Below, in pieces: positions 9,022 to 23,966 of a stretch of DNA of 34,556 bases. This DNA is from an uncultured Bacilli bacterium (GTDB taxonomy: Bacteria > Bacillota_I > Bacilli_A > RF39 > UBA660). The notes under the pieces were generated by a model. That model did not search any database. It was not told where the DNA came from and saw only the letters and a list, made by a program, of their open reading frames with translations. Both the position numbers and the translations under genes were made by a program. Location: NCBI GenBank assembly GCA_947626095.1, contig CANQQV010000015.1, forward strand, positions 1 to 34,556. The letters are read 5' to 3'. Position 1 is the stretch's first letter. Each line of letters begins with the position of its first letter.

Positions 9022-9690
9022 CTATTTCTTATTTGAATAAGCATGACTTTCTTTAATATGTTCCATTATTACTTCATCATCTAAAGTATCATCTAAAGTA
9101 ATCGTAATCCATTTAGTTTTATTCATGTGATAAGCTTTATAATAACCATCTTTTAGTAATAACTCTTGAATCTCACTTTCATCAAGTTTAATATTTAGTA
9201 TTTCCACATCACCAGTATCATTACTAAATCGACTGCGATCAATATGCATAATTAAAGCATACCATTTTTTCGTAAGCGGATTTCTAAATATTCCCGAATC
9301 ATCATTCTCCCAAGGAAACTCTGGAGCATCATTAAATTCTTCTAAAATTAATTTCGCTAAACGATTAGTTTGCGGATAAACAAAGTTATTACCTGTTGTA
9401 CATTTATCTTTAATCCTATTAAGAAAATCTATAAACTCTTGTCTTACTTTACCAACATATTCCCCAGTTTGGGTTTTTATTCGATAATTAAAATATTCTT
9501 CATTAAAAGCTAAATCATAGATATGGCCCTCTACTTTACCAGATTTAGATATTTTAACATCAATACGAAAAGAACTATTTAAAATAGTCTTAGATATTAA
9601 ATAATTATTCCCTTCTTTAGTAAAACCATAAGGAATTAATTTATCAAACAAAATAATCCTTTTTTTAAATACTTCTTCTTCAATATTCAT
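9022..9690 (-). CDS. MmcQ/YjbR family protein
   Basis: PEFPW, KKWYALIM, NIKLD, AYHMNKTKWITI and IKESH motifs. Confidence 0.88.
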   Translation of the reverse strand: MNIEEEVFKKRIILFDKLIPYGFTKEGNNYLISKTILNSSFRIDVKISKSGKVEGHIYDLAFNEEYFNYRIKTQTGEYVGKVRQEFIDFLNRIKDKCTTGNNFVYPQTNRLAKLILEEFNDAPEFPWENDDSGIFRNPLTKKWYALIMHIDRSRFSNDTGDVEILNIKLDESEIQELLLKDGYYKAYHMNKTKWITITLDDTLDDEVIMEHIKESHAYSNKK

Positions 9691-9721
9691 AAAACCCTCT
9701 TCTAATATTTCTTACTATATC

Positions 9722-11125
9722 CTAGTTACTAACTCGATGATGAACATCTGGTGTCCATTCATCAATTGTTTCAAAAGTATAATCATTATCTTTAGCATAA
9801 CGAATAATATCACGTAAAGCATCACGTGTTTGTGGTTTTACATCATGCATTAGAATCATATTAATTCTTTTATTACTTAAATTTTTAATAACATTATTAT
9901 AAACCGCTTCTTTAGTTTTTGCACCACCTGCATCTTCGCAAGATACATTCCAATCAAAATAGCGATATCCTCTATTCGTAACTTCTTGAGTTAAAGTACT
10001 CATAATACCTATACTATATTTACGACTTACTGTATTGCTACTTCCTCCAGGGAACCTAATTATTTTAGAATCAACTCCTGTAAGACGTAGAACTCGATCA
10101 TGAACAATTTGTAAATCATTAAAATAAGCATCAACTGAAGCATAAACTTTAGAATAAGTATGACTTGCTGTATGTAACCCTATTGTATGTCCCTCAGCAT
10201 ATTCGCGTTTTATCAAAGAATCAGGTCCTTTATTAGTTACAAAGAATGTTGCTTTTACACCCTCTTCTTTTAAAATATCTAAGATAACATTAGTTGTTCC
10301 ATTATTTGGTCCGTCATCAAAAGTTAAATATATTACTCCTCCCTGTGGTGGAATTACTACATTTACCTTTCTTCTAACCTCACTTGCATTTCCTGCACTA
10401 TCAGTTACTTGAAAAGCAATTTCATATATTCCAATTTTTTTTGTATCTACATTATTTATTACTTTTACCTTACTAGCTATCTCACTATCACAATTATCTG
10501 TTACCGTATAACCAGGATCATTATATATTTCGCTATAATATACTTTATAATTACTAGCACCCTTTAATACTATTTTAGGACTTTCTTCATCTACATAAGT
10601 TATCTTTCTTGTAACACTACTTGTTTTACCTAAGGAATTAGTTACTGTATAAGTTACTTCATTATCATTCGTAGTTACTTTAACTTTACTAGTTAAATCT
10701 CCATCTATATCATCACTAGCTGTATATCCTTCCTCTTCATATTTTTTATTTGGACAAACTTTTACTTTACTTTCCCCTTTAAGCGTTATAACTGGTTTTG
10801 ATGATCCATCTACAACTACTGTTCTAACTTTCTCTTTTTTATATATTCCTTTTTTTAAAGTATACTTAATTTTATAAGTTCCAATTTTCTTATCAACAGT
10901 ACCTTCTATTTGAACATCATCAGAAACATCTTTACCATAATAAGTCGCTATAACTCCGGGTTCTTGATATTTTTCAGTATAATCAATAGTTATTTCATCG
11001 CTACCCTTTAATTCTAAAGACGGTGAAGCAAAATAAAGAAGAAGTGGAATTCCACTTAGGGTTAATAATAAAAACATAATAAAAAATAAAACCATTTTCT
11101 TTTGTAAAATCGCTTCTTTACTCAT
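9722..11125 (-). CDS. Membrane-anchored polysaccharide (peptidoglycan) deacetylase with three Ig-like DUF5011-type repeats
   Basis: N-terminal TM, repeated P.I.LKG...Y.EPG..A.D units, CE4 motifs TFDDGP, HTASH, RFPGG, DW and LMHD. Confidence 0.92.
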   Translation of the reverse strand: MSKEAILQKKMVLFFIMFLLLTLSGIPLLLYFASPSLELKGSDEITIDYTEKYQEPGVIATYYGKDVSDDVQIEGTVDKKIGTYKIKYTLKKGIYKKEKVRTVVVDGSSKPVITLKGESKVKVCPNKKYEEEGYTASDDIDGDLTSKVKVTTNDNEVTYTVTNSLGKTSSVTRKITYVDEESPKIVLKGASNYKVYYSEIYNDPGYTVTDNCDSEIASKVKVINNVDTKKIGIYEIAFQVTDSAGNASEVRRKVNVVIPPQGGVIYLTFDDGPNNGTTNVILDILKEEGVKATFFVTNKGPDSLIKREYAEGHTIGLHTASHTYSKVYASVDAYFNDLQIVHDRVLRLTGVDSKIIRFPGGSSNTVSRKYSIGIMSTLTQEVTNRGYRYFDWNVSCEDAGGAKTKEAVYNNVIKNLSNKRINMILMHDVKPQTRDALRDIIRYAKDNDYTFETIDEWTPDVHHRVSN

Positions 11126-11227
11126 ACTACTCTAACTCCCGATAACTAACCATTCTTATTTATTATCTATTATTATCATACCACTTTTTAAAATCTATAA
11201 ATCATTATAATTAAACAGTTTACAAAC

Positions 11228-11254
11228 AAAAAGACAAATATCAATTTGTTTTTT
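11228..11254 (-). terminator. Probable terminator of the GntR-ABC operon
   Basis: Imperfect AAAAACAAAT/ATTTGTCTTTTT hairpin immediately after the stop. Confidence 0.45.
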
Positions 11255-11255
11255 A

Positions 11256-11891
11256 CTAAAATTCTTTATTTAAATATATTTTTTTCGATATTTTATAAGA
11301 TATATAAACCATTACTACCGCTATCGCTATTATAATAGCAACCAAATATTTTTCTAAGAAATTAAATGCTTTACCAATAAAGGAAAAGTCAATATTTAAA
11401 TTAAATATTAAACCACCAATGAAAGCTATACCAATTACAATTACGAAAATAACAATGCGGGCTTTTTCAATGCCTAATTTATAGATGATTGGATACATTA
11501 CTGCTAAGACAAGAAAAGTCCCAAAGATACCTCCAAGTGTCGTAACTAATATTTCTTCTATGTCAATTGGTTGCTTTTTAATATAAGTTAAAAGAAATGT
11601 TAATAAGATCGTTATTAAGGTTGTAACAAGAATCATAATAATTGTCGCTAAGTATTTGGCCTTAACACTATTTTCTCGTCCATTAGGTAATGCTATCGTA
11701 TAAGCGTCCCAATGGTTATACTCATCATAACTAAATGTTGAAATCATAATCATGACACAGATAAATGGTAAGATAAAGGAAATATCCATTCCATCATTAT
11801 AAGCCATTACACCATAAAAGATAAAAAGAATAAATAATATTTTAAAGTTACTTTTTATCATCGCTATATCTTTTTTAATAAAACCTAACAT
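11256..11891 (-). CDS. ABC-2 type transporter permease
   Basis: Six TM helices, FSYDE..W..Y..ALP..R...VKAKY motif. Confidence 0.9.
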   Translation of the reverse strand: MLGFIKKDIAMIKSNFKILFILFIFYGVMAYNDGMDISFILPFICVMIMISTFSYDEYNHWDAYTIALPNGRENSVKAKYLATIIMILVTTLITILLTFLLTYIKKQPIDIEEILVTTLGGIFGTFLVLAVMYPIIYKLGIEKARIVIFVIVIGIAFIGGLIFNLNIDFSFIGKAFNFLEKYLVAIIIAIAVVMVYISYKISKKIYLNKEF

Positions 11892-12748
11892 TACTCTTCC
11901 CCCTTAATCATTAAAACCATTAAGTCATCTAAAGTTATATTATCAATAACTTCTATTTTATATTTCTTTTTAAATTCTTTTTTATTTTCAACTAATACTT
12001 CATAAGCATATTTTTCTTTACGATATTTTATATAATCTTTTTTATTAATTTTCTTAAACTCTGCATCACTACATTTAGCAATTCCATAATTTTCTTTTAT
12101 CTCATCACAAGTCTTACATAATACAATTGCACCATTATTAATGAAAGTTATATAATCAGCTATATGTTCTAAATCCGTTGTAATATGACTAGATAAGAAA
12201 ATTGAACATTCTTCATTTTGAATAAAATCTTGAAATATTTCAATAACTTCAGCACGCGCAACTGGATCTAATCCTGAAGTTGGTTCATCTAAGATTAATA
12301 GTTTAGGATGATGTGATAAAGCTGTCACTATTTCTAATTTTTTACGCATTCCTTTAGATAATGTTTTAATCGTTTTATTATCAGGTAAAGAAAAATCTTT
12401 AAGATATTTATAATACATCTCACTATCCCAATTATGATAAATCCCTGCCATAACATTATTAACATCTTTTGGTGTTAAAATCTCAGGAAAGAACATATCA
12501 TCTAAGACAACACCAATATCTTCCTTAATCTTTTTCTCTTCTTTTTTACTATCTAAACCAAATATTTTAATATCTCCTTGATATTTTTTAATAATCCCTA
12601 AAATAGCTTTTATGGTTGTGGTCTTACCAGCTCCATTCTCCCCAATAAAACCCATTATCATTCCTTTAGGTAAATTAAAACTAATATTTTTTAAAGCAAA
12701 AGTATCATACTCTTTATTTAAGTTTTTAACTTCTAGTATATTTTCCAT
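11891..12748 (-). CDS. ABC transporter ATP-binding protein
   Basis: GENGAGKT, LSKGM, LILDEPTSGLDP and SSH motifs. Start moved to ATG 12748. Confidence 0.95.
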   Translation of the reverse strand: MENILEVKNLNKEYDTFALKNISFNLPKGMIMGFIGENGAGKTTTIKAILGIIKKYQGDIKIFGLDSKKEEKKIKEDIGVVLDDMFFPEILTPKDVNNVMAGIYHNWDSEMYYKYLKDFSLPDNKTIKTLSKGMRKKLEIVTALSHHPKLLILDEPTSGLDPVARAEVIEIFQDFIQNEECSIFLSSHITTDLEHIADYITFINNGAIVLCKTCDEIKENYGIAKCSDAEFKKINKKDYIKYRKEKYAYEVLVENKKEFKKKYKIEVIDNITLDDLMVLMIKGEE

Positions 12749-12749
12749 C

Positions 12750-13124
12750 TTATTCCTCCTCATATAAGATATCTATCATTTCTTTTAATTCTTTTTTAGT
12801 TACATTATTTAGTTTAGCTATTTCAATCGCTGAATCCATTAAACCTTGAATTTTATTTAATTGTTCTTCTCTTGCTAAATCTTTATTAATCTGCGCCACA
12901 TAAAAGCCTTTAGCTGGTATTGTTTTAACATACCCTTCTTTAACTAATTCCTCATAAGCATTTTTCGTGGTAATAACACTACATCTTAAATCTTTAGCTA
13001 AACTTCTAATCGATGGTAATAATTCATCAGTTTGTAATTCCCCCGAAATAATTTTACTTTTTATTTGTTCTTTTATTTGTTCATAGATTGGAACTCCATT
13101 AGAGTTACTAATTATTATTTCCAT
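12750..13124 (-). CDS. GntR-family regulator, YtrA subfamily
   Basis: PIYEQI...LPSIRSLA...TTKNAYEEL...KGFYV with a short C-terminus. First gene of an ABC operon. Confidence 0.93.
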   Translation of the reverse strand: MEIIISNSNGVPIYEQIKEQIKSKIISGELQTDELLPSIRSLAKDLRCSVITTKNAYEELVKEGYVKTIPAKGFYVAQINKDLAREEQLNKIQGLMDSAIEIAKLNNVTKKELKEMIDILYEEE

Positions 13125-13136
13125 CCAATCACCTCT

Positions 13137-13176
13137 TGTATATATTAAGTATATACAGTATATACACAGAAGTCAA
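13137..13176 (-). promoter_or_regulatory. sigmaA promoter with overlapping YtrA-type operator
   Basis: TTGACT (13171-13176), 17-nt spacer, TATACT (13148-13153). Inverted repeat TGTA-N13-TACA (13137-13157) covers the -10 and start region. Confidence 0.75.
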
Positions 13177-13177
13177 T

Positions 13178-13207
13178 AAAAAAGTAGTTTAATAACTAAA
13201 CTACTTA
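13178..13207 (-). terminator. Intrinsic terminator ending the AAA/VWA-like operon
   Basis: AAGTAGTTT/AAACTACTT stem plus T tract overlapping the stop codon. Confidence 0.65.
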
Positions 13208-14248
13208 TTTCTTTAACTTTAAACTCATTACATCGTTTTTAAATTCTTCTTTCGCTTTTTCGACATCTATTTTATCTTCCAAATTTAAATGTTTAATCGC
13301 CGCTTCAAAGTCTTCAGCTAAATCTTCGCCTCTTATTCCCATTTCTCTTGGTTGATCAAAGAAGATATCATTAGGGCCAAAATGTAATACTTTTTTCGTA
13401 AATCTCTCACCACAGGTTGTACCGTAGCCGCTTTCCCAGTCTCTTTTTACATCTAGCGTTTCTAAAATTCTAAATAATATTCTTCGTAAAAATTCCACAC
13501 GACATAATGTCTTATATAAAGCCGCCATATTCATTCTTTCGCCATGACGTTTTATTTGGACCACAATGTATATAAGTTCATCATATTCTTCACTTAATTC
13601 AAAAGTATCTAAATCAACACTATATCCTGCTTTTTCTAAGGCTGTTAATATATTTGTAATAATGATTGCGCGATTAAGTACTTGCCTTTTCGTTGTTCCC
13701 CAATAATATGATAATGTTACATGGATTCTTACAAACTTCGGTTGTTTAATCTTTTCTTCAGTTTCATAACATAAAGGATTCCCCGCACTATAAGCTGGCA
13801 CGTTTAAATGTCCACCAGCTACTGTTCTAACTAATTTATATTTATGTATTTCTCTTAAGTTAGCACTATTTAAATCCCTTTGTAAAGTTAAGAATTCTTC
13901 ATAACCAGGATCAACATCATTTATCAAGTCTTCTACTGCTGCTTTATATGGCTTACCAGCAAAACCACTATCTTTAACTACACTATGTAAGGTTGTAAAA
14001 ACTCTTCGATTAGTTTCAGGATTACTTTTTAAATATTCATAAAGGTCAAATAAACTACTAAATCGTGCTTTATAAATTGTATAAGTATCATCACCAACAT
14101 CAATTTCCTCGGGAGGAAAAATATAATCTTCAAACTTTTCATAATTATGTGGATAATCCATTATTTCTTCCTCCTCTTCGACATCTTCTTCGTCTTCTAC
14201 TATTTCTTCTGTTTCTTTTATAACTCTTTCAAATCCATCATCTAACAA
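13205..14248 (-). CDS. Degenerate VWA-like (CobT-like) partner of the AAA+ ATPase
   Basis: Acidic N-terminal tract, VAGGHLNVPAY.AG.P, beta-alpha pattern VRIHVTLS...LTALEKAGYSVDL...VQIK..GE...FLRR..F...GYG. TTG start with AAGGA RBS 7 nt upstream. Confidence 0.6.
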   Translation of the reverse strand: MLDDGFERVIKETEEIVEDEEDVEEEEEIMDYPHNYEKFEDYIFPPEEIDVGDDTYTIYKARFSSLFDLYEYLKSNPETNRRVFTTLHSVVKDSGFAGKPYKAAVEDLINDVDPGYEEFLTLQRDLNSANLREIHKYKLVRTVAGGHLNVPAYSAGNPLCYETEEKIKQPKFVRIHVTLSYYWGTTKRQVLNRAIIITNILTALEKAGYSVDLDTFELSEEYDELIYIVVQIKRHGERMNMAALYKTLCRVEFLRRILFRILETLDVKRDWESGYGTTCGERFTKKVLHFGPNDIFFDQPREMGIRGEDLAEDFEAAIKHLNLEDKIDVEKAKEEFKNDVMSLKLKK

Positions 14249-14307
14249 TAATAATTCCTTAAGTTTTTTAATTAATTCCTTGAGTTTAATTAAATATCTT
14301 TTAGTCT

Positions 14308-16605
14308 TTATTTTCTTTTCTTCTTTTCTACACCATTTAAGGAATTATTACAAGTTCTAATAAATGATTTAGCTAAAATCATAGTATCAGCATCAGCTAA
14401 TCTTTCTGGCTCCGTAAACTTACCAAGACTATCAGCATCTAAGCTATAAAACTCACTAAATTTTTTCTTTAAGAAACTTAAATAATCTCTTTCTTTAGTT
14501 TGTGTAAATTTTTCACGCATTATTTGATCTATAGATTTACTATTATGATTTATGTATTTAACAATCGCCGCCGCATCTCTTGTTGTCCCAATACCAGGTG
14601 CTACATCTAAACCATGTTGTTTGGCATATATTTCACAAGCTTCTCTAAACTTAATAAATATTTCATACCAATTAGTATAATTACCAAATATTTTTTGTTC
14701 TACGACATTATCATATTTAAACTCTTTAGGTGTCATACGTTCTTGAACTGCTTCATCAATTTTACCACGTGAAGAAAATATTTGGTTTTCTCCACCACCT
14801 CTTGTATTACCAGCACTAATCATTCTAAAATTAGGGCTTATTGGAACTGTCATATCTTCAGCAAATGTTACATAACGTTTTTTATTTGGATTACCTAAAA
14901 CATCCAATAAACCAGAATATAATTCATTTAAAACAACTTGCGTATCTGTATTACCATTATCAAATTCATCTAAAGATAACATCTTACCATATACTAAAGC
15001 GACAAAAGCTTGAGTTGCTCTAAATCTTCCATGTGGATCATTATAAGCCATAATACTATATTTATCAGTTATTTTACCATTTTCTACTAAATCAATACCA
15101 ATTAATTCTGCTACTTGTTTAATAACAAATGATTTACCGCAACCAGAAGGTCCCCATAAATAAACCCAATCACCTTCTAAGATACAACGTATAACTTCTT
15201 CAACCATTTCATGGAAGAACTCTCCATTTGCTTCACGACGTTTTTTCTCTTCTAATATTTTGTCCATTCGTTTATCAAATGGAATACTCTCATCAAAAGC
15301 TGGTAAGATAACTGACTCAGTATGTTCTTTCGGAATAATAACTTGTGGATTAGCTGGTACTACTAAACGATCATTACCAGGTATAACTATTCCACTAACT
15401 GGTGCTCCTACTACCGCTTGACTTTCTGCTCCTACTTGTAATTCACTAAATTTCTTTAAAGCTTCCATTATCTTTTCATTATCACTAGCACTCTTTAAGA
15501 ATTCTTGTAATTGTGGTTCTGTTTCCACATAACTTTTTAATCGAGCTACACTATCTTGTGTTGCTTTTTGAATACGTAATAGTTCTGATGTTGTGGTACT
15601 TGATAAACCACTAGCCATTACTTTAATACTATTTATTTTTTCTTCAGCATCTAAAAGTAATTGTTTAAATATTTCATCACTACTCTTTTTTAAAGCATCT
15701 TCTAAAGATAATAAATATTCATCTAGTTTTTTAACTAATTCAAGTCTTACTTCTTCAATTTCCTTTTTCATTTCTGATATTGCATCATCACTATATGTCC
15801 TAATATCTTGTTTGCCGACTCTTAAAGTATCATTTATTTCTTTAACTCCAGCTTTCGTAAGGGCATTAACTCGATCTTGATAACTATCTACTTTCTTTTG
15901 CATAACACTAAGTTTAGCAATTAAACCTTGGGCTTTTTCCGCTTCGGCTGATATCGTTGCTAATGTTTTTTCATCAATTGGATAAATACCAGTTCTTTTC
16001 TTTGCTTCCGTAAGTCTTTTTTCTTTATAACTAGTTACATCATCTAACTCATTTTTTAAAACACTAACAAAAGATAATATTTCATTTTTTAACACCGCCT
16101 GATTAATTGTATATGGTGCTACTTCTAAAGCATAACTTACAATATCTTTATAATGCGAAGTTAAATCTTCATCATCTCTAATTATTTTCATCAGATATAA
16201 ATAATCTAAACGTGAATCAAATAAACTATAAAATCTTTTATCAAAAACATCTTTAGCTAAAATACCATCATTTCCCCCAAAGTTATGAACAAACATATTT
16301 TTTATTGCTTCATAATCAGGTGTTTTTTCACCCTCTGGTAAAAAGAACTCTATGGCATCTAGTAATTCATTATATAAGGCCTTAAATTCTTCTAAATCAC
16401 TAAAATCCGTATTAATTATTTCTAAGATTATTCCTTCTAAGAATTCGAAGTTAAAAAAGTCATTATTTCTTTTTTTATCTCTAATCTCAGTTACATAATT
16501 AACTAAATAATTAATAATTTCATAGTTTAAACCAGAACTTCTTATTACTTTAATTAATCTTTTATAATCCTTTTCTTCTGGTGTTTCTTCACTAAATATT
16601 CCCAT
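14308..16605 (-). CDS. CobS/MoxR-type AAA+ ATPase with long N-terminal helical/coiled-coil extension
   Basis: Walker A GPSGCGKS, Walker B LSLDEFD, NFRMISAGNT.G.G sensor-1, R.KIDEA..ER arginine finger and TTRD sensor-2. Likely start ATG 16605 behind AAGGGTG. Confidence 0.88.
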   Translation of the reverse strand: MGIFSEETPEEKDYKRLIKVIRSSGLNYEIINYLVNYVTEIRDKKRNNDFFNFEFLEGIILEIINTDFSDLEEFKALYNELLDAIEFFLPEGEKTPDYEAIKNMFVHNFGGNDGILAKDVFDKRFYSLFDSRLDYLYLMKIIRDDEDLTSHYKDIVSYALEVAPYTINQAVLKNEILSFVSVLKNELDDVTSYKEKRLTEAKKRTGIYPIDEKTLATISAEAEKAQGLIAKLSVMQKKVDSYQDRVNALTKAGVKEINDTLRVGKQDIRTYSDDAISEMKKEIEEVRLELVKKLDEYLLSLEDALKKSSDEIFKQLLLDAEEKINSIKVMASGLSSTTTSELLRIQKATQDSVARLKSYVETEPQLQEFLKSASDNEKIMEALKKFSELQVGAESQAVVGAPVSGIVIPGNDRLVVPANPQVIIPKEHTESVILPAFDESIPFDKRMDKILEEKKRREANGEFFHEMVEEVIRCILEGDWVYLWGPSGCGKSFVIKQVAELIGIDLVENGKITDKYSIMAYNDPHGRFRATQAFVALVYGKMLSLDEFDNGNTDTQVVLNELYSGLLDVLGNPNKKRYVTFAEDMTVPISPNFRMISAGNTRGGGENQIFSSRGKIDEAVQERMTPKEFKYDNVVEQKIFGNYTNWYEIFIKFREACEIYAKQHGLDVAPGIGTTRDAAAIVKYINHNSKSIDQIMREKFTQTKERDYLSFLKKKFSEFYSLDADSLGKFTEPERLADADTMILAKSFIRTCNNSLNGVEKKKRK

Positions 16606-17929
16606 CTTGTTCACCCTTTACTAATCTAAGCATTTGCGCTTTATTTAACATATCACTAGCTTGTAAGACATTATCTTCTTTTCTAACTGTTCTTAAACTA
16701 TCCCTACTTATTCCTTTTATACCTTTACTACTTTGTTCTAAATGATAATAATATCTATTTTTTAATTTATCATCATAGTATCCCAAACCACCTAAAACTT
16801 TATCAGTAAATCCTGTTTCTATAACATATATTCCATTAGTTGGTGATAAACAAACCCCATTAATTGTTTTTCTTACTTCATCTAAAACCATTTCATGAGC
16901 ATCAACTGCCACCGTTTTATTTCTAATATAAGTTTTAGCAAAATACTCTCTTCTACTAAAAGCATCACTATTTACATCAATATACATATTATGAACTTTA
17001 ACTATCTTCTCAGTCTCACTTATCTCTTGGATTTGATTACTTACTCCATATAAAGATCCCCAAGGAAGTCTATACCAAGTTAAATTACTATCATAATCTA
17101 AATTAGCGATATTCTCCCATTCATTACTTGTTACTTCTAAATCTCTATCCTCATACACAACTGGTATTCCATCTTTTTTTATTTCATATGTCTCTTTAGG
17201 TGCTCCCTTAGTTATATGATAAAGACTACTACTTACTAACTTATAAGAAGGAATAATTAACTCAATACTAATTGCTTCTTTACTAAATTTAATCTTTATC
17301 CCAAGTGGTTCATTCTTCGTATTTAAACCACCAACATATATTTCATACTCATCACTATCTATTTTATTAAATTGTAAGTTGATATTAACTTCTATGCCAT
17401 CTACTTGACCATATAAAACATAATTATCTCGATATCCACTTACCTCTTCATCAAAAGTAACTACTCGATTCGTAAATTCATAAAATTTTTTTATATGATA
17501 CTTAATCATTGGTAATAATAATTTAACTTCGTCAGTCTGAAATAATAAACTACTATCATAACTATCTTTACCATCATAAAAACTATATATTTCATTTATT
17601 TCTTCTAAACGTCCACTTAAAAGAATTTCTTTAGTTTTATCATCAATATTTATTCTTGGACGTAACTTAAAAGGATCTGTTAAACCATCTTCTAATAAAT
17701 TATCTTTTTCATTGTTATATACTTCAACAACCTTTTGCACAAATACTTTAAAGTTTTTATCTTTGGCACTAAGATTTAAATATTTACCACCATCATATGT
17801 CACAAGTAAGGTTGGCACAACAACTAATTTACCCGTTCCATTTAACACTAAATCCCAAAGCTTAATTGATTCAATATTATGTAAATTATATATTTCTATT
17901 AATTCTCTATCCATTCCATATAATTGCAT
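16592..17929 (-). CDS. Hypothetical protein (445 aa, beta-rich, no signal peptide)
   Basis: Long ORF, AAGGGTG RBS, overlaps the ATPase start by 14 nt. No family recognised. Confidence 0.8.
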   Translation of the reverse strand: MQLYGMDRELIEIYNLHNIESIKLWDLVLNGTGKLVVVPTLLVTYDGGKYLNLSAKDKNFKVFVQKVVEVYNNEKDNLLEDGLTDPFKLRPRINIDDKTKEILLSGRLEEINEIYSFYDGKDSYDSSLLFQTDEVKLLLPMIKYHIKKFYEFTNRVVTFDEEVSGYRDNYVLYGQVDGIEVNINLQFNKIDSDEYEIYVGGLNTKNEPLGIKIKFSKEAISIELIIPSYKLVSSSLYHITKGAPKETYEIKKDGIPVVYEDRDLEVTSNEWENIANLDYDSNLTWYRLPWGSLYGVSNQIQEISETEKIVKVHNMYIDVNSDAFSRREYFAKTYIRNKTVAVDAHEMVLDEVRKTINGVCLSPTNGIYVIETGFTDKVLGGLGYYDDKLKNRYYYHLEQSSKGIKGISRDSLRTVRKEDNVLQASDMLNKAQMLRLVKGEQDGNI

Positions 17930-17951
17930 AACATCACCCTTAGCATTGATT

Positions 17952-17980
17952 ACTATATAGATTTAATATTCTTTTGTCAA
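17952..17980 (-). promoter_or_regulatory. Near-consensus sigmaA promoter of the three-gene AAA operon
   Basis: TTGACA (17975-17980), 17-nt spacer, TATAGT (17952-17957). Confidence 0.75.
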
Positions 17981-17991
17981 GCAAAAAGGAC

Positions 17992-19869
17992 TTATTTAAG
18001 TCCCATTTCTTCTCCTTCTACATCAAATTTATTAACGCCATTTAATAAAACTGTCTTTTCTTCATTTTTATCTACTTTATATCTTACTGGAAAATTTTTC
18101 CGATATATTTGTTTATTATAAGCCATTGTTTCATTAACTCTCTGTTCTAGTTCTTCGCCTTCTAATCCCAATACTATATGATAATAAGCTGTAATACCTT
18201 CTTTTAGTGTTCGACCACTAACTACTTTATTAACTTTAGTTAAAATATGTTCACCAATATCAAGGAATATATTTTGAATATCTGCTTTCGAATAATTAAA
18301 ACCATAATCTCTAATTCCTGAATATTTACTAATTATTTCTTGATAAAATTCATTATCTAAAGTTTCAAACTTATCTAATAATTCTCTAATAATATCTGCT
18401 TCTTTTTTATTTTTATTCTTATCTAACAATATATTAATTTTTGCATAAAACTCTTCTAGACTATGCACAAAAAATAATTCATCTACCCCATAACAATTAA
18501 AATAGTTCGATCTTCTTGTCCCATTATATTCATCTTGTGTCATTAGAGCATAACTATAAGTATCATGTTCCATATCATTATCCCATGTTGGATCAGCTAT
18601 AAAATAACCATCTATACCATACTTAGGATCAACTAAATGAACTTCTCTTCTAGCATGATCTCCTCGTTCAATCATGACTTCATGTTCTTTTCCCGTTTTA
18701 GAAGAAACTATCTTTTCTGGCAAAATTACAATATCATCTGGAACATCATCAAATCCTACATTTACTCCTACTGAGTAATCTAAACTAGGTATCCCTAGTT
18801 TTTCTAATAAATCACCAAGTAATCTTGAAAAACCTACACAAACTATATAATCATTATCTAATAACTGATATAGATTTCGTGAATTAGCTTTATCTTCATT
18901 ATTTTCTTTATATTTTTTAAATTGTTTAACCTTATTATAAGCAAATAAATATTTTTCAAAAGGACTTAAATTCATTGCTGGTAAAACCATTTCCATAAGT
19001 CTTCGTTCATTTTTTATATATGTTAAAATATCACAATCTAAACCTAAATGCTTATTAGATTTAATAAAAATATTTTGCGTATCTGGTAATTCTTCCAAAT
19101 GATTTAATAAATAATTATTAAAATCATTTTTATTATCAACATAAAGATATATCTCACCTTTAAAATCTAATTCTTTTAATCTTCTAATAACTTTAAAATA
19201 ATTATTATTATCAAGTGATTTTAAATCAATTTTTGCTTTTTTATTTATGTATTTTAAATAATATAATTCTTCATCATTTAAGGGATTATTAAAATAAAAC
19301 GAATCATTACTTTGTAACATTGTATAAGGATAATAACCAATTAATTCTCTTCTATTATGCAAAATAATTGGATCAAAATTATCTTTAAGTTCTTTACTTA
19401 CTTCATAACTTCTTATTTCTTCGACATTCCCTTTTTTTAAAGAATTATATTCATTAAGTGTTAAAGGAGCCACATCATCCCTATTACCAATTCTAACTCT
19501 TTCTATATTTAGATTATTACCAATTGCTTCACAAAATCGATCATTAACTATCATACTATCAGCTAAAGCAATAAATTCTCCTTTTTTATAACGACAAATA
19601 AATTCAATTAAGTCATCTATTTCCTCTTTATGTTCTTGATAATATTTTGAATCAATACTAAGTACTTTTGATCCAAATACTGCTGAAACTAATACTAACG
19701 GATGTTCATAATCAGAATAAATAACTTTAGTATCTTTAATTAAAGCACACGAATCAATGGAAATTTCTTCTATCTCTAATTCACTTAAATGTTCTTTAAT
19801 TTCGGCAATCGTTAATATTTTAGGATTTAAAAAATCTAATTTATAACCTAGTGCTATTTTTTCCATCAT
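17992..19869 (-). CDS. Transglutaminase-like (papain-fold Cys-His-Asp) protein, cytoplasmic
   Basis: LSPFEKYLFAY, VCVGFSRLLGDLLEKLGIPS (Cys), GDHAR (His) and YFIADPTWD (Asp). No signal peptide or TM. Confidence 0.82.
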   Translation of the reverse strand: MMEKIALGYKLDFLNPKILTIAEIKEHLSELEIEEISIDSCALIKDTKVIYSDYEHPLVLVSAVFGSKVLSIDSKYYQEHKEEIDDLIEFICRYKKGEFIALADSMIVNDRFCEAIGNNLNIERVRIGNRDDVAPLTLNEYNSLKKGNVEEIRSYEVSKELKDNFDPIILHNRRELIGYYPYTMLQSNDSFYFNNPLNDEELYYLKYINKKAKIDLKSLDNNNYFKVIRRLKELDFKGEIYLYVDNKNDFNNYLLNHLEELPDTQNIFIKSNKHLGLDCDILTYIKNERRLMEMVLPAMNLSPFEKYLFAYNKVKQFKKYKENNEDKANSRNLYQLLDNDYIVCVGFSRLLGDLLEKLGIPSLDYSVGVNVGFDDVPDDIVILPEKIVSSKTGKEHEVMIERGDHARREVHLVDPKYGIDGYFIADPTWDNDMEHDTYSYALMTQDEYNGTRRSNYFNCYGVDELFFVHSLEEFYAKINILLDKNKNKKEADIIRELLDKFETLDNEFYQEIISKYSGIRDYGFNYSKADIQNIFLDIGEHILTKVNKVVSGRTLKEGITAYYHIVLGLEGEELEQRVNETMAYNKQIYRKNFPVRYKVDKNEEKTVLLNGVNKFDVEGEEMGLK

Positions 19870-19885
19870 ATCACCTATTATTTAA

Positions 19886-19894
19886 ATTATAACA
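19886..19894 (-). promoter_or_regulatory. Extended -10 promoter of the transglutaminase-like gene
   Basis: TGTTATAAT directly after the T tract of the der terminator. Confidence 0.6.
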
Positions 19895-19918
19895 AAAAAA
19901 TGATGATTATTCATCATC
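19894..19918 (-). terminator. der terminator
   Basis: GATGATGA-ATAA-TCATCATT hairpin plus T7, overlapping the stop codon. Confidence 0.55.
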
Positions 19919-21235
19919 ATCTTCGTCTTTACTACCTCTATTTTTAAATTGTAAAATAATCGGTGTTCCTGTAAAATCAAAATTCTTTCTAATCGTATTT
20001 TCTAAATATCTTTCATAACTAAAATGAACTAAGCCTTTATCATTACATCTAAAAGTAAATTTAGGTGGACATATTCCCGTTTGACTACTAAAGTAAATCT
20101 TTAACTTACGTCCTTTATATCCTGGTGCATCATGTAACTTAGTTGCATCAGTAATTACATTATTTAAAAGTGATGTTTTAACTTCACGATGGTTATTTTC
20201 ATAAGCACTTAGTATTTCTGGCATTAAAGTATGTAATCTTTTCTTTGTTAAAGCCGATAAGAATACTACTTTAGCATAAGTCATAAACTGAAATTCGTTT
20301 TCTAAAAGTACTTTCCATTCTTTAATTGCTGAATCTTTATCTTCTATCGTATCCCATTTATTAACTACTAAGACTAAACCTTTACCAGCTTCTATTGCAT
20401 AACTAGCAATATGTTTATCATGCTCAATAATTCCTTCTTTTGCATCTATCACTAATACACATACATCAGATCGATCAATAGCTTTTAAACTTCTAAGTAA
20501 ACTATATTTTTCTACTGATTCATATATCCTACCTTGTTTACGCATTCCTGCTGTATCAATAACGATATAGTCTTCATTATTATATCTAAATCTTGTATCG
20601 ACCGAATCTCTAGTTGTTCCTGCAACATCAGAAACAATTGCTCTTTCTTCATTTAATAAAGCATTAACTAAACTACTTTTACCAACATTAGGTCGACCAA
20701 TAATACAAAATTTTAAGATATTTTCAGGCATATCAGTATTCTCTTTAAAATCTCTAGTTATTTCATCTAATAAATCACCAAAGCCTAAATTATGAGAAGC
20801 AGATATAGGTATTACATATTGAAAACCTAATTCATAGTAATAATATATTCTTTCTTCTTGCATCTTAACATTATCTAATTTATTTAAAGCAACAATAACT
20901 TTTTTATTAGTTTTCATTAACATATCACGAATATATAAATCATTACTTGTTAAATCTTCACGTCCATCAACAACAAAAACAATTACATCAGATTCATCAA
21001 TTGCAATCTCTGCTTGTAATCTAATATCTTTATTAAAATCACCTTCGCCTAAATCTATTCCTCCAGTATCAACTAGTAAAAAAGTTTTCTCATCATAAGT
21101 AACATCACCATATAAACGATCTCTTGTTACTCCTGGAGTATCTAAGATAATAGCTTTATTTTCTTTAATTAAACGATTAAATATTGTACTTTTGCCAACA
21201 TTAGGTCTTCCGATTAAACAAACTGTCTTTTTCAT
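19907..21235 (-). CDS. der: Ribosome biogenesis GTPase Der (EngA)
   Basis: Two tandem G domains (GRPNVGKS twice, GVTRD/GTTRD, DTGG/DTAG, NKLD/NKWD) and KH-like tail HFSYERYLEN...GTPI. Confidence 0.98.
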   Translation of the reverse strand: MKKTVCLIGRPNVGKSTIFNRLIKENKAIILDTPGVTRDRLYGDVTYDEKTFLLVDTGGIDLGEGDFNKDIRLQAEIAIDESDVIVFVVDGREDLTSNDLYIRDMLMKTNKKVIVALNKLDNVKMQEERIYYYYELGFQYVIPISASHNLGFGDLLDEITRDFKENTDMPENILKFCIIGRPNVGKSSLVNALLNEERAIVSDVAGTTRDSVDTRFRYNNEDYIVIDTAGMRKQGRIYESVEKYSLLRSLKAIDRSDVCVLVIDAKEGIIEHDKHIASYAIEAGKGLVLVVNKWDTIEDKDSAIKEWKVLLENEFQFMTYAKVVFLSALTKKRLHTLMPEILSAYENNHREVKTSLLNNVITDATKLHDAPGYKGRKLKIYFSSQTGICPPKFTFRCNDKGLVHFSYERYLENTIRKNFDFTGTPIILQFKNRGSKDEDDDE

Positions 21236-21319
21236 CTTCTACCCCTCATTTCTCGTGGTATTTTAACATAATTATTATCATATGTAAAATTCTCTTTTAA
21301 TTATAAATTATCTCTAAAC

Positions 21320-21345
21320 AAAAGAAAAGGTACTAATTAGTACCT
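21320..21345 (-). terminator. ysxC terminator
   Basis: AGGTACTA/TAGTACCT stem followed by TTTCTTTT. Confidence 0.6.
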
Positions 21346-21923
21346 AGACAACCTTCAATAATTGTATATAACTCTTCTCTTCCTTTTTTCGTTACTGAAG
21401 AAAATAAAACAATATTATCATTTCCTTTAAGTTCAAAAGAATCACGTAAAGCATTTTCATTCTTAACACGATCTTTTTGGCCTACTTTATCATACTTAGT
21501 TGCTACTATCGTTACATCTAAATTATAATATTTCATAAAGTTATACATTAGCAAATCATCTTCTGTTGGTTTATGTCTAAAATCAACTAACAAAAAGACT
21601 CTTTTTAAACATTTTCTTTTTATTAAATACTCTTCAATCATTAAACCAAATTTCTTTTGTGTATCCTGTGAAACAGAAGCATAACCATAACCAGGTACAT
21701 CTACTAAATAAAACCTATCATTAATTAAATAGAAATTTAAAGTCTTTGTTTTACCAGGTGTTGCACTAGTATGCGCAAAATTCTTACGACATATCAAAGA
21801 ATTAATAAAAGAACTTTTACCAACATTACTTCTTCCTACTAACAAAAACTCACTTTTATCATCATCAGGGTATTGACTAGTTCTAACTGCTATACTTTTA
21901 AGCTCGACGCTATCAATTTTCAT
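21333..21923 (-). CDS. engB: Ribosome biogenesis GTP-binding protein YsxC/YihA (EngB)
   Basis: GRSNVGKSS, TPGKT, DVPGYGYA and TKYDK motifs. Likely start ATG 21923. Confidence 0.96.
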   Translation of the reverse strand: MKIDSVELKSIAVRTSQYPDDDKSEFLLVGRSNVGKSSFINSLICRKNFAHTSATPGKTKTLNFYLINDRFYLVDVPGYGYASVSQDTQKKFGLMIEEYLIKRKCLKRVFLLVDFRHKPTEDDLLMYNFMKYYNLDVTIVATKYDKVGQKDRVKNENALRDSFELKGNDNIVLFSSVTKKGREELYTIIEGCLGTN

Positions 21924-21972: not shown

Positions 21973-21982
21973 ATCACCTTCT
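21953..21982 (-). terminator. glmS terminator
   Basis: AGAAGGTGAT-TTGAC-ATTACCTTCT hairpin plus T tract. Confidence 0.7.
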
Positions 21983-23766
21983 TATTCAACTGTTACACTC
22001 TTAGCTAAATTACGTGGTTTATCAATATCACAACCATTTAACTTAGCCACATAATAAGCTATTAGCTGACAATTAACCATTACTAACGCTCCACTAATAA
22101 GTTCATGAACTTTAGGTATTAAAATCAATTCATCATATAACGATTTATCATCTATTTCTCTATTACTAATTATAATACTTAAAGCTTTTCTTGCTTTTAC
22201 TTCTTTTATATTACTTAATGTTTTAGTTCTAATATCATCATCCGTAACAATACTTATTACTGGCGTCTTATCTTCTATTAAACTAATCGTTCCGTGTTTT
22301 AATTCACCAGCTGCATACGCTTCACTATGTAAATAACTTACTTCCTTTAACTTTAATGAAGCTTCTAAACAAAGTGCATAATCTAACTTACGTCCTAAAT
22401 AAAAAATATCTTTCTTTTGATAAATTAATTGGGCAATTTTTTCTAACTTTTCTTTATTTTCTAATTCATCACTAATTAGTTTATCTAACTCTTTATACTC
22501 TTTTAATACATCTTTACTTAGACTTTTATTCTTAATTCCTAAATATAAAGCTATTAAAGATAATATCATCATTTGACACAAATAAGCTTTAGTTGTTGCT
22601 ACTGCTATTTCTGGTCCCGCTTTAATATATAATACTTTATCTGCTTCTCTTGCTATTGATGAACCAACAACATTTACTATTGCTAATGTCTGAGTTCCCA
22701 TTTCTTTAGCTTTTCTTAAAACAGCTAAAGTATCAGCTGTTTCCCCAGACTGACTTATTAAAATAATTAAATGCTTTTTTCGGTAAATATGTTCTGTATA
22801 ACGATATTCTGATGCAATATCAGTTCTAACTTCTACTTTACCATATTTAGTAATTAAATATTTACCAACTAAGCCAACATGGTAAGCACTACCACAACCA
22901 ACAATATCAATAGCTTCATATTTTTCTAATCCTTTTAATTTTTCTTCTAATGCTTCATAACTATTAATATATTCGTTAATCGTTTCCATCACTGCTTTAG
23001 GCTGTTCCTCGATTTCTTTAAGCATATAATGATCATAACCATTTTTCATTGCTGCATCAATGCTACCTTCAAATACTTCTAACGATTTTGTACTTATCTT
23101 TCCATCTTTATCATAAATAGTTACATCATTTTTACTTAATACAGCATATTCATCATTTAAAAGTAAATAATACATCTTCGTATATTCTAAAATAGCTGGA
23201 ACATCACTCGCTATATAATTACCATCTTCACTTATGCCAATAATTAATGGACTATCTTTTCTAATAGCATATATCATATCTAAACCATCAACTAAAACTC
23301 CTAAAGCATAACTACCTTTTAAATAGTCTTTTAATTTAGCTAGAACTTTTAACATATCATTATCTTCTTGATATAGTTTATCTATTAAAGCTGCTACTAC
23401 TTCACTATCTGTTTCACTTTGCCATTTATATTCTTTTAAATATTTTTTTAATTTCTCATAATTTTCAATTATTCCATTATGCACTAAAGTTATCTTTCCA
23501 ACCTTATGAGGATGACTATTTACTGTACATGGCATACCATGAGTCGCCCACCTTGTATGACCAATTCCCATATAAGAATCAAGATCTTTATTTATTAATT
23601 CTTTAAGATTTACTATTTTCCCCTCTTCTTTAACTATTTCAATATCGTTATTTAATTTATAAGCAATCCCGGCACTATCATAACCACGATATTCTAAAGA
23701 TTCCAAACCTTTTATTATTTTAGGTATACATTTATCTTTCCCAATGTATCCGACAATTCCACACAC
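21982..23766 (-). CDS. glmS: Glutamine--fructose-6-phosphate aminotransferase
   Basis: GTG start at 23766 (GGAGG RBS) gives N-terminal (M)CGIVG. LEYRGYDSAG, GHTRWATHG, SQSGETADT and PRNLAKSVTVE motifs. Confidence 0.98.
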   Translation of the reverse strand: MCGIVGYIGKDKCIPKIIKGLESLEYRGYDSAGIAYKLNNDIEIVKEEGKIVNLKELINKDLDSYMGIGHTRWATHGMPCTVNSHPHKVGKITLVHNGIIENYEKLKKYLKEYKWQSETDSEVVAALIDKLYQEDNDMLKVLAKLKDYLKGSYALGVLVDGLDMIYAIRKDSPLIIGISEDGNYIASDVPAILEYTKMYYLLLNDEYAVLSKNDVTIYDKDGKISTKSLEVFEGSIDAAMKNGYDHYMLKEIEEQPKAVMETINEYINSYEALEEKLKGLEKYEAIDIVGCGSAYHVGLVGKYLITKYGKVEVRTDIASEYRYTEHIYRKKHLIILISQSGETADTLAVLRKAKEMGTQTLAIVNVVGSSIAREADKVLYIKAGPEIAVATTKAYLCQMMILSLIALYLGIKNKSLSKDVLKEYKELDKLISDELENKEKLEKIAQLIYQKKDIFYLGRKLDYALCLEASLKLKEVSYLHSEAYAAGELKHGTISLIEDKTPVISIVTDDDIRTKTLSNIKEVKARKALSIIISNREIDDKSLYDELILIPKVHELISGALVMVNCQLIAYYVAKLNGCDIDKPRNLAKSVTVE

Positions 23767-23787
23767 AAAAAATTCCTCCATACAAAA

Positions 23788-23926
23788 AAGATATGGAGAA
23801 TTATTCTTTGTTACAATCTTGATTTTGCTTTTTTAATAATTCTAACGTTTCCACTCTTACGTAGTAATACCCGCCGAATCTTTCGAACCTTACTAACCTC
23901 GTCATCCTTAAAGGACCTGGCGCTAA
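23788..23926 (-). ncRNA. glmS ribozyme (GlcN6P-activated self-cleaving riboswitch)
   Basis: Minus strand reads AGCGCCAGG-TCCTTTAAGGA-TGACGAGG...TCGAAAGATTCGGCGG...; P4-like AGAATTATT/AATAATTCT stem; lies in the glmS leader. Confidence 0.92.
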
Positions 23927-23966
23927 CTTAAAAATACTACCTTTCTTCATTTAAGTTTTATACTTA

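Follow-up and report, generated by a model that had tools for sequence, protein, structure and literature searches.

A G1-ATPase-DUF7192 gene cassette in small-genome gut Bacilli: a candidate three-part variant of MoxR-VWA remodelling machines

The locus and its three proteins

We analysed a stretch of 34,556 nucleotides (nt; "the window" below) from an uncultured Bacilli bacterium (assembly GCA_947626095.1, contig CANQQV010000015.1). The window makes up contig C15 in a genome that is 1.6 Mb long, 91% complete and split into 34 contigs, with ~27% G+C; close homologues are labelled, for instance, "Candidatus Coprovivens sp." or "Bacilli bacterium". Our subject is a cassette of three genes on its minus strand, which encode G1, a protein of 445 amino acids (aa) that matches no family or fold, an AAA+ ATPase of the MoxR/CobS class, and a DUF7192 protein with a predicted VWA-like fold. 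The three genes are inherited and moved as a unit. They most likely represent a three-part variant, undescribed so far, of the MoxR-VWA remodelling machines. The features of the cassette are as follows.

16592-17929, minus strand: gene 1 (G1), 445 aa, ATG start, from its open reading frame (ORF)
14308-16614, minus strand: gene 2 (ATPase), ORF of 768 aa read from GTG
16006-16605, minus strand: N-terminal helical domain of the ATPase, residues ~1-200, from alignments
15451-15993, minus strand: coiled-coil-like region of the ATPase, residues ~205-385, from a simple heptad scan
14311-15240, minus strand: AAA+ module of the ATPase, residues ~456-765, CobS/MoxR/midasin class, from Pfam, PHROG and a PDB profile search
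13205-14248, minus strand: gene 3 (DUF7192 protein), ORF of 347 aa read from TTG 14248
17952-17980, minus strand: promoter-like TTGACA-17-TATAGT upstream of G1, matching the consensus at 11 of 12 positions
13176-13206, minus strand: intrinsic-terminator-like hairpin and U6 run after gene 3 (-8.7 kcal/mol, z -2.58)

A preliminary description of this DNA had placed three co-oriented genes between the TTGACA-17-TATAGT site and a terminator. This arrangement holds, as all three ORFs lie on the minus strand between the promoter-like site and the hairpin, both of which are present, the terminator being real but weak. The promoter-like site is the best match of its kind across 12700-21500, a region in which such sites are overall not enriched (52 versus 60.9 +/- 9.4 in shuffles). 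The hairpin after gene 3 has a 10-bp A/U-rich stem that overlaps the stop codon; one of 200 shuffles was equally good, and the terminator scan had passed over it, its stem having fewer than three G-C pairs. No protein has a signal peptide, as had been stated, since no 19-residue window is hydrophobic enough (maximum Kyte-Doolittle value 1.41), and windows of the same kind revealed no membrane span in the trio or in the 625-aa neighbour described below.

Two of the three gene starts call for comment. For gene 2 the sequence makes ATG 16605 (765 aa), behind the ribosome-binding site AAGGGTGA, the more likely start than GTG 16614. Given that start, the overlap between G1 and the ATPase gene is exactly the 14 nt reported before, and G1 is predicted to be translationally coupled to the ATPase gene. 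The start of gene 3 is uncertain because the ORF has a second possible start, the internal ATG 14161 preceded by a strong GAGGAGG site, from which a form of 318 aa would result; this matches the usual length of its homologues (mostly 316-320 aa).

The ATPase belongs to the CobS/MoxR (AAA_5) class, in agreement with the preliminary description. Pfam AAA_5 is matched above its cut-off at residues 485-612 (30.3 bits versus 22) and phrog_249, which PHROG labels "porphyrin biosynthesis", at an E-value (E) of 1.2e-24. The nearest solved relatives are all members of the class: a profile of the AAA+ module built from 15 homologues found midasin (8.2e-57, five ring domains), CobS (1.8e-16), CbbQ (4e-12), CbbQ/NirQ/NorQ (9e-11) and NorQ (1.2e-8) in the PDB. 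The motifs reported earlier are intact, namely Walker A GPSGCGKS, Walker B LDEFD with D546/E547, sensor-1 N600, R613 and R676, and they are invariant or nearly so in alignments of 11 and 20 homologues; the two arginines may be read as arginine finger and sensor 2. No CobS-specific model appeared among the Pfam or NCBIfam results for the ATPase. The absence of a cobalamin context, also part of the preliminary description, stood up as well, in that CobN (PF02514) was not found in the 91%-complete genome by a search that gave positive matches in control genomes. Outside the AAA+ module the coiled-coil-like region gave weak Pfam matches below the cut-off, to GA_3 and apolipoprotein-type families, and in the alignment a Pro/Gly/Val-rich linker also precedes the module. 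Residues 1-270 had no phage match. The idea that the N-terminus is a fused TelA was ruled out (hhalign probability 1.7%).

Gene 3 encodes a member of Pfam DUF7192 (PF23822; E 2.1e-18) and of phrog_1909 (E 4e-23), both of unknown function, and no paper on "DUF7192" was found in the searched literature. DUF7192 is its sole Pfam match; no VWA sequence family is matched at E<=1, and the family profile has no match among PDB sequences. The fold was approached through an AlphaFold2 model built from 43 sequences, with a predicted local distance difference test score (pLDDT) of 80.7 and a predicted template modelling score (pTM) of 0.76. Searched with Foldseek against the PDB, this model has as its top four matches the NorD VWA chains of NorQ-NorD complexes (best E 3.5e-5, probability 1.0, template modelling score (TM) 0.26-0.28). 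A VIA alignment with NorD reached Z 8.4 at a root-mean-square deviation (rmsd) of 7.3 with 210 aligned residues (model residues 13-299), and a second chain reached 8.2. The domains of Rea1/MDN1 that carry MIDAS, the metal-ion-dependent adhesion site, scored 5.4-5.9, other VWA domains 4-5, and all 50 rows listed were VWA-fold domains. We consider the match of the modelled protein to the VWA fold moderate but consistent.

The metal site itself is missing. Among 18 DUF7192 proteins, drawn from loci of the trio, pair-only and phage types, none has DxSxS (MIDAS) at the aligned loop after the first strand, a position taken from the DUF7192 model. The earlier label "degenerate VWA-like" thus suits the 347-aa protein as modelled, which combines a VWA-like fold with the lack of MIDAS. 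The family has conserved features of its own, a Gly/Pro-rich loop (residues 114-133, numbered on the 318-aa form), a FLRRxxFRxxE helix and W..GYG. DUF7192 proteins span 267-372 aa and the VWA-like part reaches about residue 300 of 318; no effector or other extra domain was found on them by Pfam, model or homologue lengths.

G1 matched nothing in Pfam, NCBIfam, PHROG or PADLOC, and none of 43 diverse members of its family had a convincing match in Pfam. A profile search of 1.84 billion cluster representatives recovered 251 relatives at E<=1e-3, nearly all of them 360-450 aa long. The AlphaFold2 model of G1 (pLDDT 84.3, pTM 0.81) consists largely of beta structure, apart from a small alpha/beta part at the N-terminus. 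With this model Foldseek found nothing in the PDB at E<=0.001, and the one row returned from a viral structure library (7.2e-4, TM 0.10) was taken as noise. PDB sequences gave no match either (best E 0.32), and the protein atlas none that was usable. A wide VIA search peaked at Z 8.5, for residues 144-264 only, against porin-like and other beta-sheets, which we judged a common arrangement. In the alignment of the 43 members there are 0 invariant columns; columns conserved at >=75% are hydrophobic, aromatic, Gly or Pro, save D57, D96 and T372, and no conserved Cys, His or acidic cluster is seen. This pattern of conservation argues against an enzyme. The preliminary description had proposed G1 as a dedicated client or effector; a partner, adaptor or sensor would fit it better than an enzyme effector because conserved catalytic-looking residues are missing.

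Distribution of the cassette and of its motor pair

The trio occurs well beyond the window. Of 27 genomes in the genus, the same 11 have both G1 and the orthologous DUF7192 gene, which lie on a single contig with ~3.3 kb between them, and the order G1-ATPase-DUF7192 is kept in all nine genus loci that were fetched. Across the family, sampled evenly with 401 genomes, 14 genomes matched the G1 profile (one weakly) and 26 had DUF7192; both occur together in 11, always on one contig and 2.5-3.8 kb apart. At the level of the class DUF7192 is rarer than in the family (four of 401 genomes). Among 12 loci from 12 other genera, ten keep the same order, so that it is found in 19 of the 21 loci fetched from other genomes, ten of these in other genera and with different housekeeping neighbours. 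The co-occurrence of the three genes, on which the preliminary description depended, is therefore established. From the G1 stop to the ATPase start there are -14 to +6 nt in 20/20 trio loci.

The three proteins evolve at different rates. Across six genus loci, Der is 86-95% identical to the window, DUF7192 59-92%, the ATPase 50-83% and G1, the fastest-evolving member of the trio, 43-80%; the most divergent part of the ATPase is its N-terminal domain. In two of the 12 loci from other genera (L054 and L059) no AAA+ gene exists, and G1 is followed by proteins that lack a P-loop and share the first 250-300 residues of the ATPase. L059 (genome G746, 9490-16662, plus strand) has four such paralogues in tandem, 568-633 aa long, after TelA and a G1 homologue; none of the four has a P-loop or a Pfam family. 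Because it is kept beside G1 without the AAA+ module, the N-terminal domain appears to be a separable module that tracks G1.

The loci lie among ordinary genes. The 77 flanking ORFs in the 12 loci are housekeeping genes that differ between genera, their families including Mur ligases, SSB, YchF, Gmk, RelA, PBP, TsaBDE, IleRS, DivIVA/SepF, GlmS, Tgt and LspA, and no integrase, phage or defence family was recognisable among them. Within the genus, five genomes without the trio have der and then thrS (thrS by Pfam). The interval between the two holds nothing >=100 aa in three of them (G041, G024, G021), two small ORFs in G019, and a homologue of the 625-aa neighbour plus two small ORFs in G006. 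Since the interval is empty or otherwise filled in these genomes, the trio occupies a variable der-thrS spot. It appears to be a chromosomal accessory operon that is often lost in the genus.

The contents of this interval vary across the genus (loci L029-L033 included): it may be empty, or hold small ORFs, the 625-aa gene, or the 625-aa gene together with the trio. In the window der lies at 19907-21235, and thrS is not downstream. In its place follow genes of 124, 290 and 211 aa, which by eye resemble a GntR-type regulator with an ABC transporter.

The ATPase and DUF7192 also exist as a pair without G1, above all in phages; in the family sample 15 of 401 genomes have this pair-only type. Relatives of DUF7192 were found in 263 phage records (Staphylococcus 236, Mycobacterium 22, and others) and the AAA+ part of the ATPase in 343 (Staphylococcus 236, Listeria 70, Mycobacterium 19, and others); plasmids gave no match for DUF7192. 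In Staphylococcus Kayvirus GH15 a 359-aa AAA_5 ATPase (ORF047) directly precedes a 281-aa DUF7192 protein (ORF046), and in Clostridium phage CS266P3 the two are adjacent in reverse order. The phage ATPases are short (359-378 aa) and have neither the N-terminal domain nor the coiled coil. No relative of G1 was found in phages, and no viral contig was confirmed with a closer G1 alignment. The genome that contains the window has a second pair on contig C6 (L020, 10928-13566, minus strand), consisting of an AAA_5 ATPase of 586 aa and a DUF7192 protein of 291 aa; it has no G1 and lies between folD and an ABC-F gene. Pairs like this one also occur in two other genomes (G216, G356).

ATPase and DUF7192 genes were adjacent in every case examined, that is, in the window, on C6, in G216 and G356, in GH15 and CS266P3, and in 19 further trio loci. 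Trees of the AAA+ module and of DUF7192 (18 rows each) agree on the main groups, a window-like trio clade, TelA-linked trio types, and a group of phage and pair-only proteins, to which the C6 pair belongs in both trees. Support for the window-like trio clade is 100/99 in both trees, that for the phage and pair-only group 100/99 and 82/89. As the two trees share their main groups, the pair seems to co-diversify, with the trio type as a distinct lineage.

Neighbouring genes

The preliminary description had called the operon self-contained. The trio is indeed a unit, but in distant relatives TelA is a fourth member: of eight distant loci tested, six have a TelA gene (PF05816) directly upstream of G1 (E 2.5e-7 to 1.3e-27). 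Neither the window nor its own genome gave a TelA match in a search that, as a control, detected PF05816 genes in Bacillus subtilis. Because TelA is missing from that genome, a link to the cell envelope may not apply to the version in the window. TerD, TerC and TerB genes were not seen in the loci. We take YaaN and YceH of B. subtilis to be TelA homologues. The xpaC-yaaN and yceC-H operons of this species are listed in the sigma-W regulon (PMC3498285).

In two loci other genes abut G1 upstream, one of 469 aa (L053, 9362-10771, minus strand) and one of 313 aa (L057, 8904-9845, minus strand), and neither matches TelA or any Pfam family. These could be TelA genes that have diverged, or else encode another fourth partner.

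In the window the next gene upstream of the trio is the following.

17992-19869, minus strand: 625-aa neighbour gene (ORF) with its own terminator at 17987-18004

A homologue of this gene stands upstream of the trio in seven of the nine genus loci, with der next in six of those seven, and the gene occurs in 20 of the 27 genus genomes, some of them without the trio. We considered it as a member of the operon and ruled this out by its own terminator (18004-17987, the second one at the locus), which closes the gene, and by its occurrence in genomes that lack the trio. It is probably outside the unit, though a frequent neighbour of the trio in the genus. The protein has no match in the family libraries; weak leads in the atlas point to transglutaminase-like clusters (scores 0.84-0.86), and C344, H405 and D426 are invariant in seven homologues. 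These three residues would presumably form the Cys-His-Asp triad of the transglutaminase-like fold. Farther upstream a glmS ribozyme lies at 23788-23935 on the minus strand (54.9 bits versus a gathering score of 37), upstream of a 599-aa ORF at 21982-23781.

A remodelling machine and its alternatives

MoxR-class rings work with VWA partners, and several systems of this kind invite comparison with the cassette. NorQ-NorD is an AAA_5-class ATPase beside a VWA-fold partner, the iron-inserting system that contains NorD and serves nitric oxide reductase. The cassette resembles it in that DUF7192 best matches the VWA domain of NorD and the ATPase profile matches NorQ (1.2e-8). It differs in the lack of MIDAS in DUF7192, in the ~450-aa N-terminal domain plus coiled coil of the ATPase and in its dedicated G1, and neither the window nor the flanks examined show a nitric oxide reductase context. 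With CobS-CobT the cassette shares the ATPase type, CobS being the closest single-domain solved relative (1.8e-16), and one study describes a two-gene cluster of an ATPase and a VWA protein (cobST) as widespread in tailed viruses (PMC8651126). The cassette is nevertheless not CobST, because no CobS model matches the ATPase and CobN is missing from the genome; in addition, DUF7192 is unmatched by sequence models of CobT or VWA. Nor is the DUF7192 protein a canonical VWA protein, since it has no MIDAS and belongs to no VWA sequence family. The Kayvirus pair comes from the same two families, adjacent and, in GH15, in the same order, with Staphylococcus accounting for 236 and 236 of the records. 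In contrast to that pair, the cassette adds G1 and the N-terminal domain and coiled coil of the ATPase; the phage records that we saw bear no functional annotation.

Conflict systems offer a further comparison. According to PMC7159879, the MoxR-vWA ternary systems combine in one operon a MoxR ATPase, a vWA protein and a third conserved component (VMAP, inactive STAND, FtsH or beta-propeller), with variable effectors placed C-terminally on the vWA protein. A MoxR-vWA threat-sensing (Esr) pathway in Actinobacteria has experimental support (bioRxiv 10.64898/2026.09.08.750141). Like both, the cassette joins a MoxR-class ATPase and a vWA-type protein in one operon with a third protein that is conserved but more variable. 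It is unlike the ternary systems in that the VWA-like protein has no effector, G1 belongs to no recognised family and the ATPase carries an extra domain; the hosts differ as well, being small-genome gut Bacilli here and multicellular Actinobacteria or Cyanobacteria there. Because of the missing effector domains the cassette is not a ternary conflict system of the described type. A further study proposes that TelA and a vWA protein build sub-membrane structures or barriers against phage (PMC7824862). The likeness to such Ter/TelA sets lies in the TelA gene upstream of G1, which only the distant sub-type has (6/8 loci), and the differences lie in the lack of TelA in the own genome, the absence of TerD, TerC and TerB from the loci seen, and an ATPase N-terminus that is not TelA-like. 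PADLOC-DB 2.0 gave no significant match for any component (best E 0.0066-0.26, over short stretches, and none for G1), in line with the earlier view of the trio as a candidate undescribed system, and no publication that describes the cassette was found in the searched literature. The cassette resembles the MoxR-VWA machines but belongs to none of the named ones.

Our preferred interpretation is that the trio forms one ATP-driven protein-remodelling machine of the kind that joins a MoxR/CobS-type AAA+ ATPase to a VWA cofactor, here with two extra parts, and we give it about an even chance of being right. In NorQ-NorD, one study reports, a finger of the VWA domain enters the pore of the ring and the C-terminus contacts the ring (PMC13036017). 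By analogy, the ATPase would form a ring that grips DUF7192 as NorQ grips NorD, with a loop of the VWA-like domain in the pore and the C-terminus on the ring; the conserved, low-confidence loop 99-140 of DUF7192 is a candidate for the finger. The N-terminal domain and coiled coil of the ATPase would hold G1, and ATP hydrolysis would remodel G1 itself or a target bound by G1 and DUF7192. More speculatively, the machine might take part in an envelope-stress or exclusion response, acting at the inner face of the membrane; this idea comes from TelA preceding G1 in the distant versions and from all parts being soluble. An envelope-stress or conflict role is what we infer at present, and for the TelA-less version of the window the step at the membrane face is speculative.

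Several points weigh against this interpretation. G1 has no recognised fold or motif, and the case for its role is built on gene context only. The VWA match is modest (rmsd ~7 A, Foldseek TM 0.26-0.28), and DUF7192 lacks the metal site that VWA partners normally use for holding substrates. TelA is not present in the own genome, and no TelA-type gene abuts G1 in the four closest other genera. Finally, the patchy distribution of the trio and the fast evolution of G1 would equally fit a conflict system.

This leads to an alternative in which the trio serves in conflict, against phages or otherwise, and is built like the MoxR-vWA ternary systems: G1 would be a fast-evolving sensor, the ATPase and DUF7192 the switch, and a separate output the effector, perhaps the 625-aa transglutaminase-like protein or a TelA layer, while the bare pair would serve phages as a countermeasure or in some use of their own. 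The trio is patchily distributed, being in 11 of 27 genus genomes and in 11 of 401 from the family, which suits such a system, and so do the variable der-thrS spot, empty or differently filled in 5/5 trio-less genomes checked, and the rapid change of G1 and of the ATPase N-terminal domain. The combination of MoxR, vWA and a third component (PMC7159879) resembles the trio in architecture, the account of the actinobacterial pathway (bioRxiv 10.64898/2026.09.08.750141) lends experimental support to threat sensing by MoxR-vWA proteins, and TelA with vWA has been proposed, in PMC7824862, to form sub-membrane phage barriers. Against this stand the failure of any PADLOC model to match (best E 0.0066-0.014, over short stretches), the lack of an effector fused to the VWA-like protein, a hallmark of the ternary systems as described, and the lack of any recognisable defence, integrase or phage family among the 77 flanking ORFs of the 12 loci; the 625-aa gene, as a possible effector, has its own terminator and occurs without the trio. 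We think this alternative rather unlikely. The preliminary description had named a remodelling or an anti-phage system, and nothing that we found speaks for an anti-phage role over others, the loci lying among housekeeping genes and not in defence islands or mobile elements.

Two further explanations have less to recommend them. The trio might act, like NorQ-NorD, CbbQ-CbbO or CobS-CobT, as a chaperone dedicated to maturation or metal insertion, with G1 as a client enzyme or as a scaffold that needs ATP-driven activation. The nearest solved relatives are indeed such pairs (CobS, CbbQ and NorQ for the ATPase, NorD for DUF7192), and the tight coupling of the G1 and ATPase genes would fit a client. 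We hold this to be improbable all the same, as G1 has no conserved Cys, His or acidic cluster, the VWA-like protein has no MIDAS, CobN was not found in the genome, and both cells and phages have pairs that lack G1. Still less can be said for the view that the trio is left over from a phage module, decaying or selfish, and does nothing for the cell. The pair is common in phages (263 DUF7192 and 343 AAA+ records) and DUF7192 is rare in cells (4/401 class genomes); yet in 20 loci from 13 genera the three ORFs are all intact and their motifs and order conserved, no phage or integrase genes flank the loci, no relative of G1 or of the ATPase N-terminal domain was found in phages, and the trio-type proteins form clades of their own apart from those of the phage and pair type. 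This last explanation is already disfavoured, and we consider it very improbable.

The remodelling machine can also be drawn in a bolder form, as a four-part system of TelA, G1, the ATPase with its own N-terminal domain, and the MIDAS-less VWA-like protein. In this form G1, with a fold not yet seen, would sense an envelope insult or a phage, the CobS/MoxR motor with DUF7192 would remodel a TelA-type sub-membrane layer, and phages (relatives of Staphylococcus phage K) would use the bare pair that they carry to drive this process or subvert it. We regard this form as unlikely.

Pairs of a MoxR/CobS-type ATPase and a VWA protein are widespread, and most of them have no known function. What the cassette adds to this class is a VWA partner free of the metal site (DUF7192), a separable N-terminal domain on the ATPase, and a dedicated third protein without family or fold match. 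The same motor pair is present in hundreds of phage genomes, including those of the well-studied Kayvirus, so that solving either version would inform the other. The connection with TelA provides a testable lead on a family whose mechanism has stayed obscure, and the cassette, being small, soluble and complete, is suited to biochemistry.

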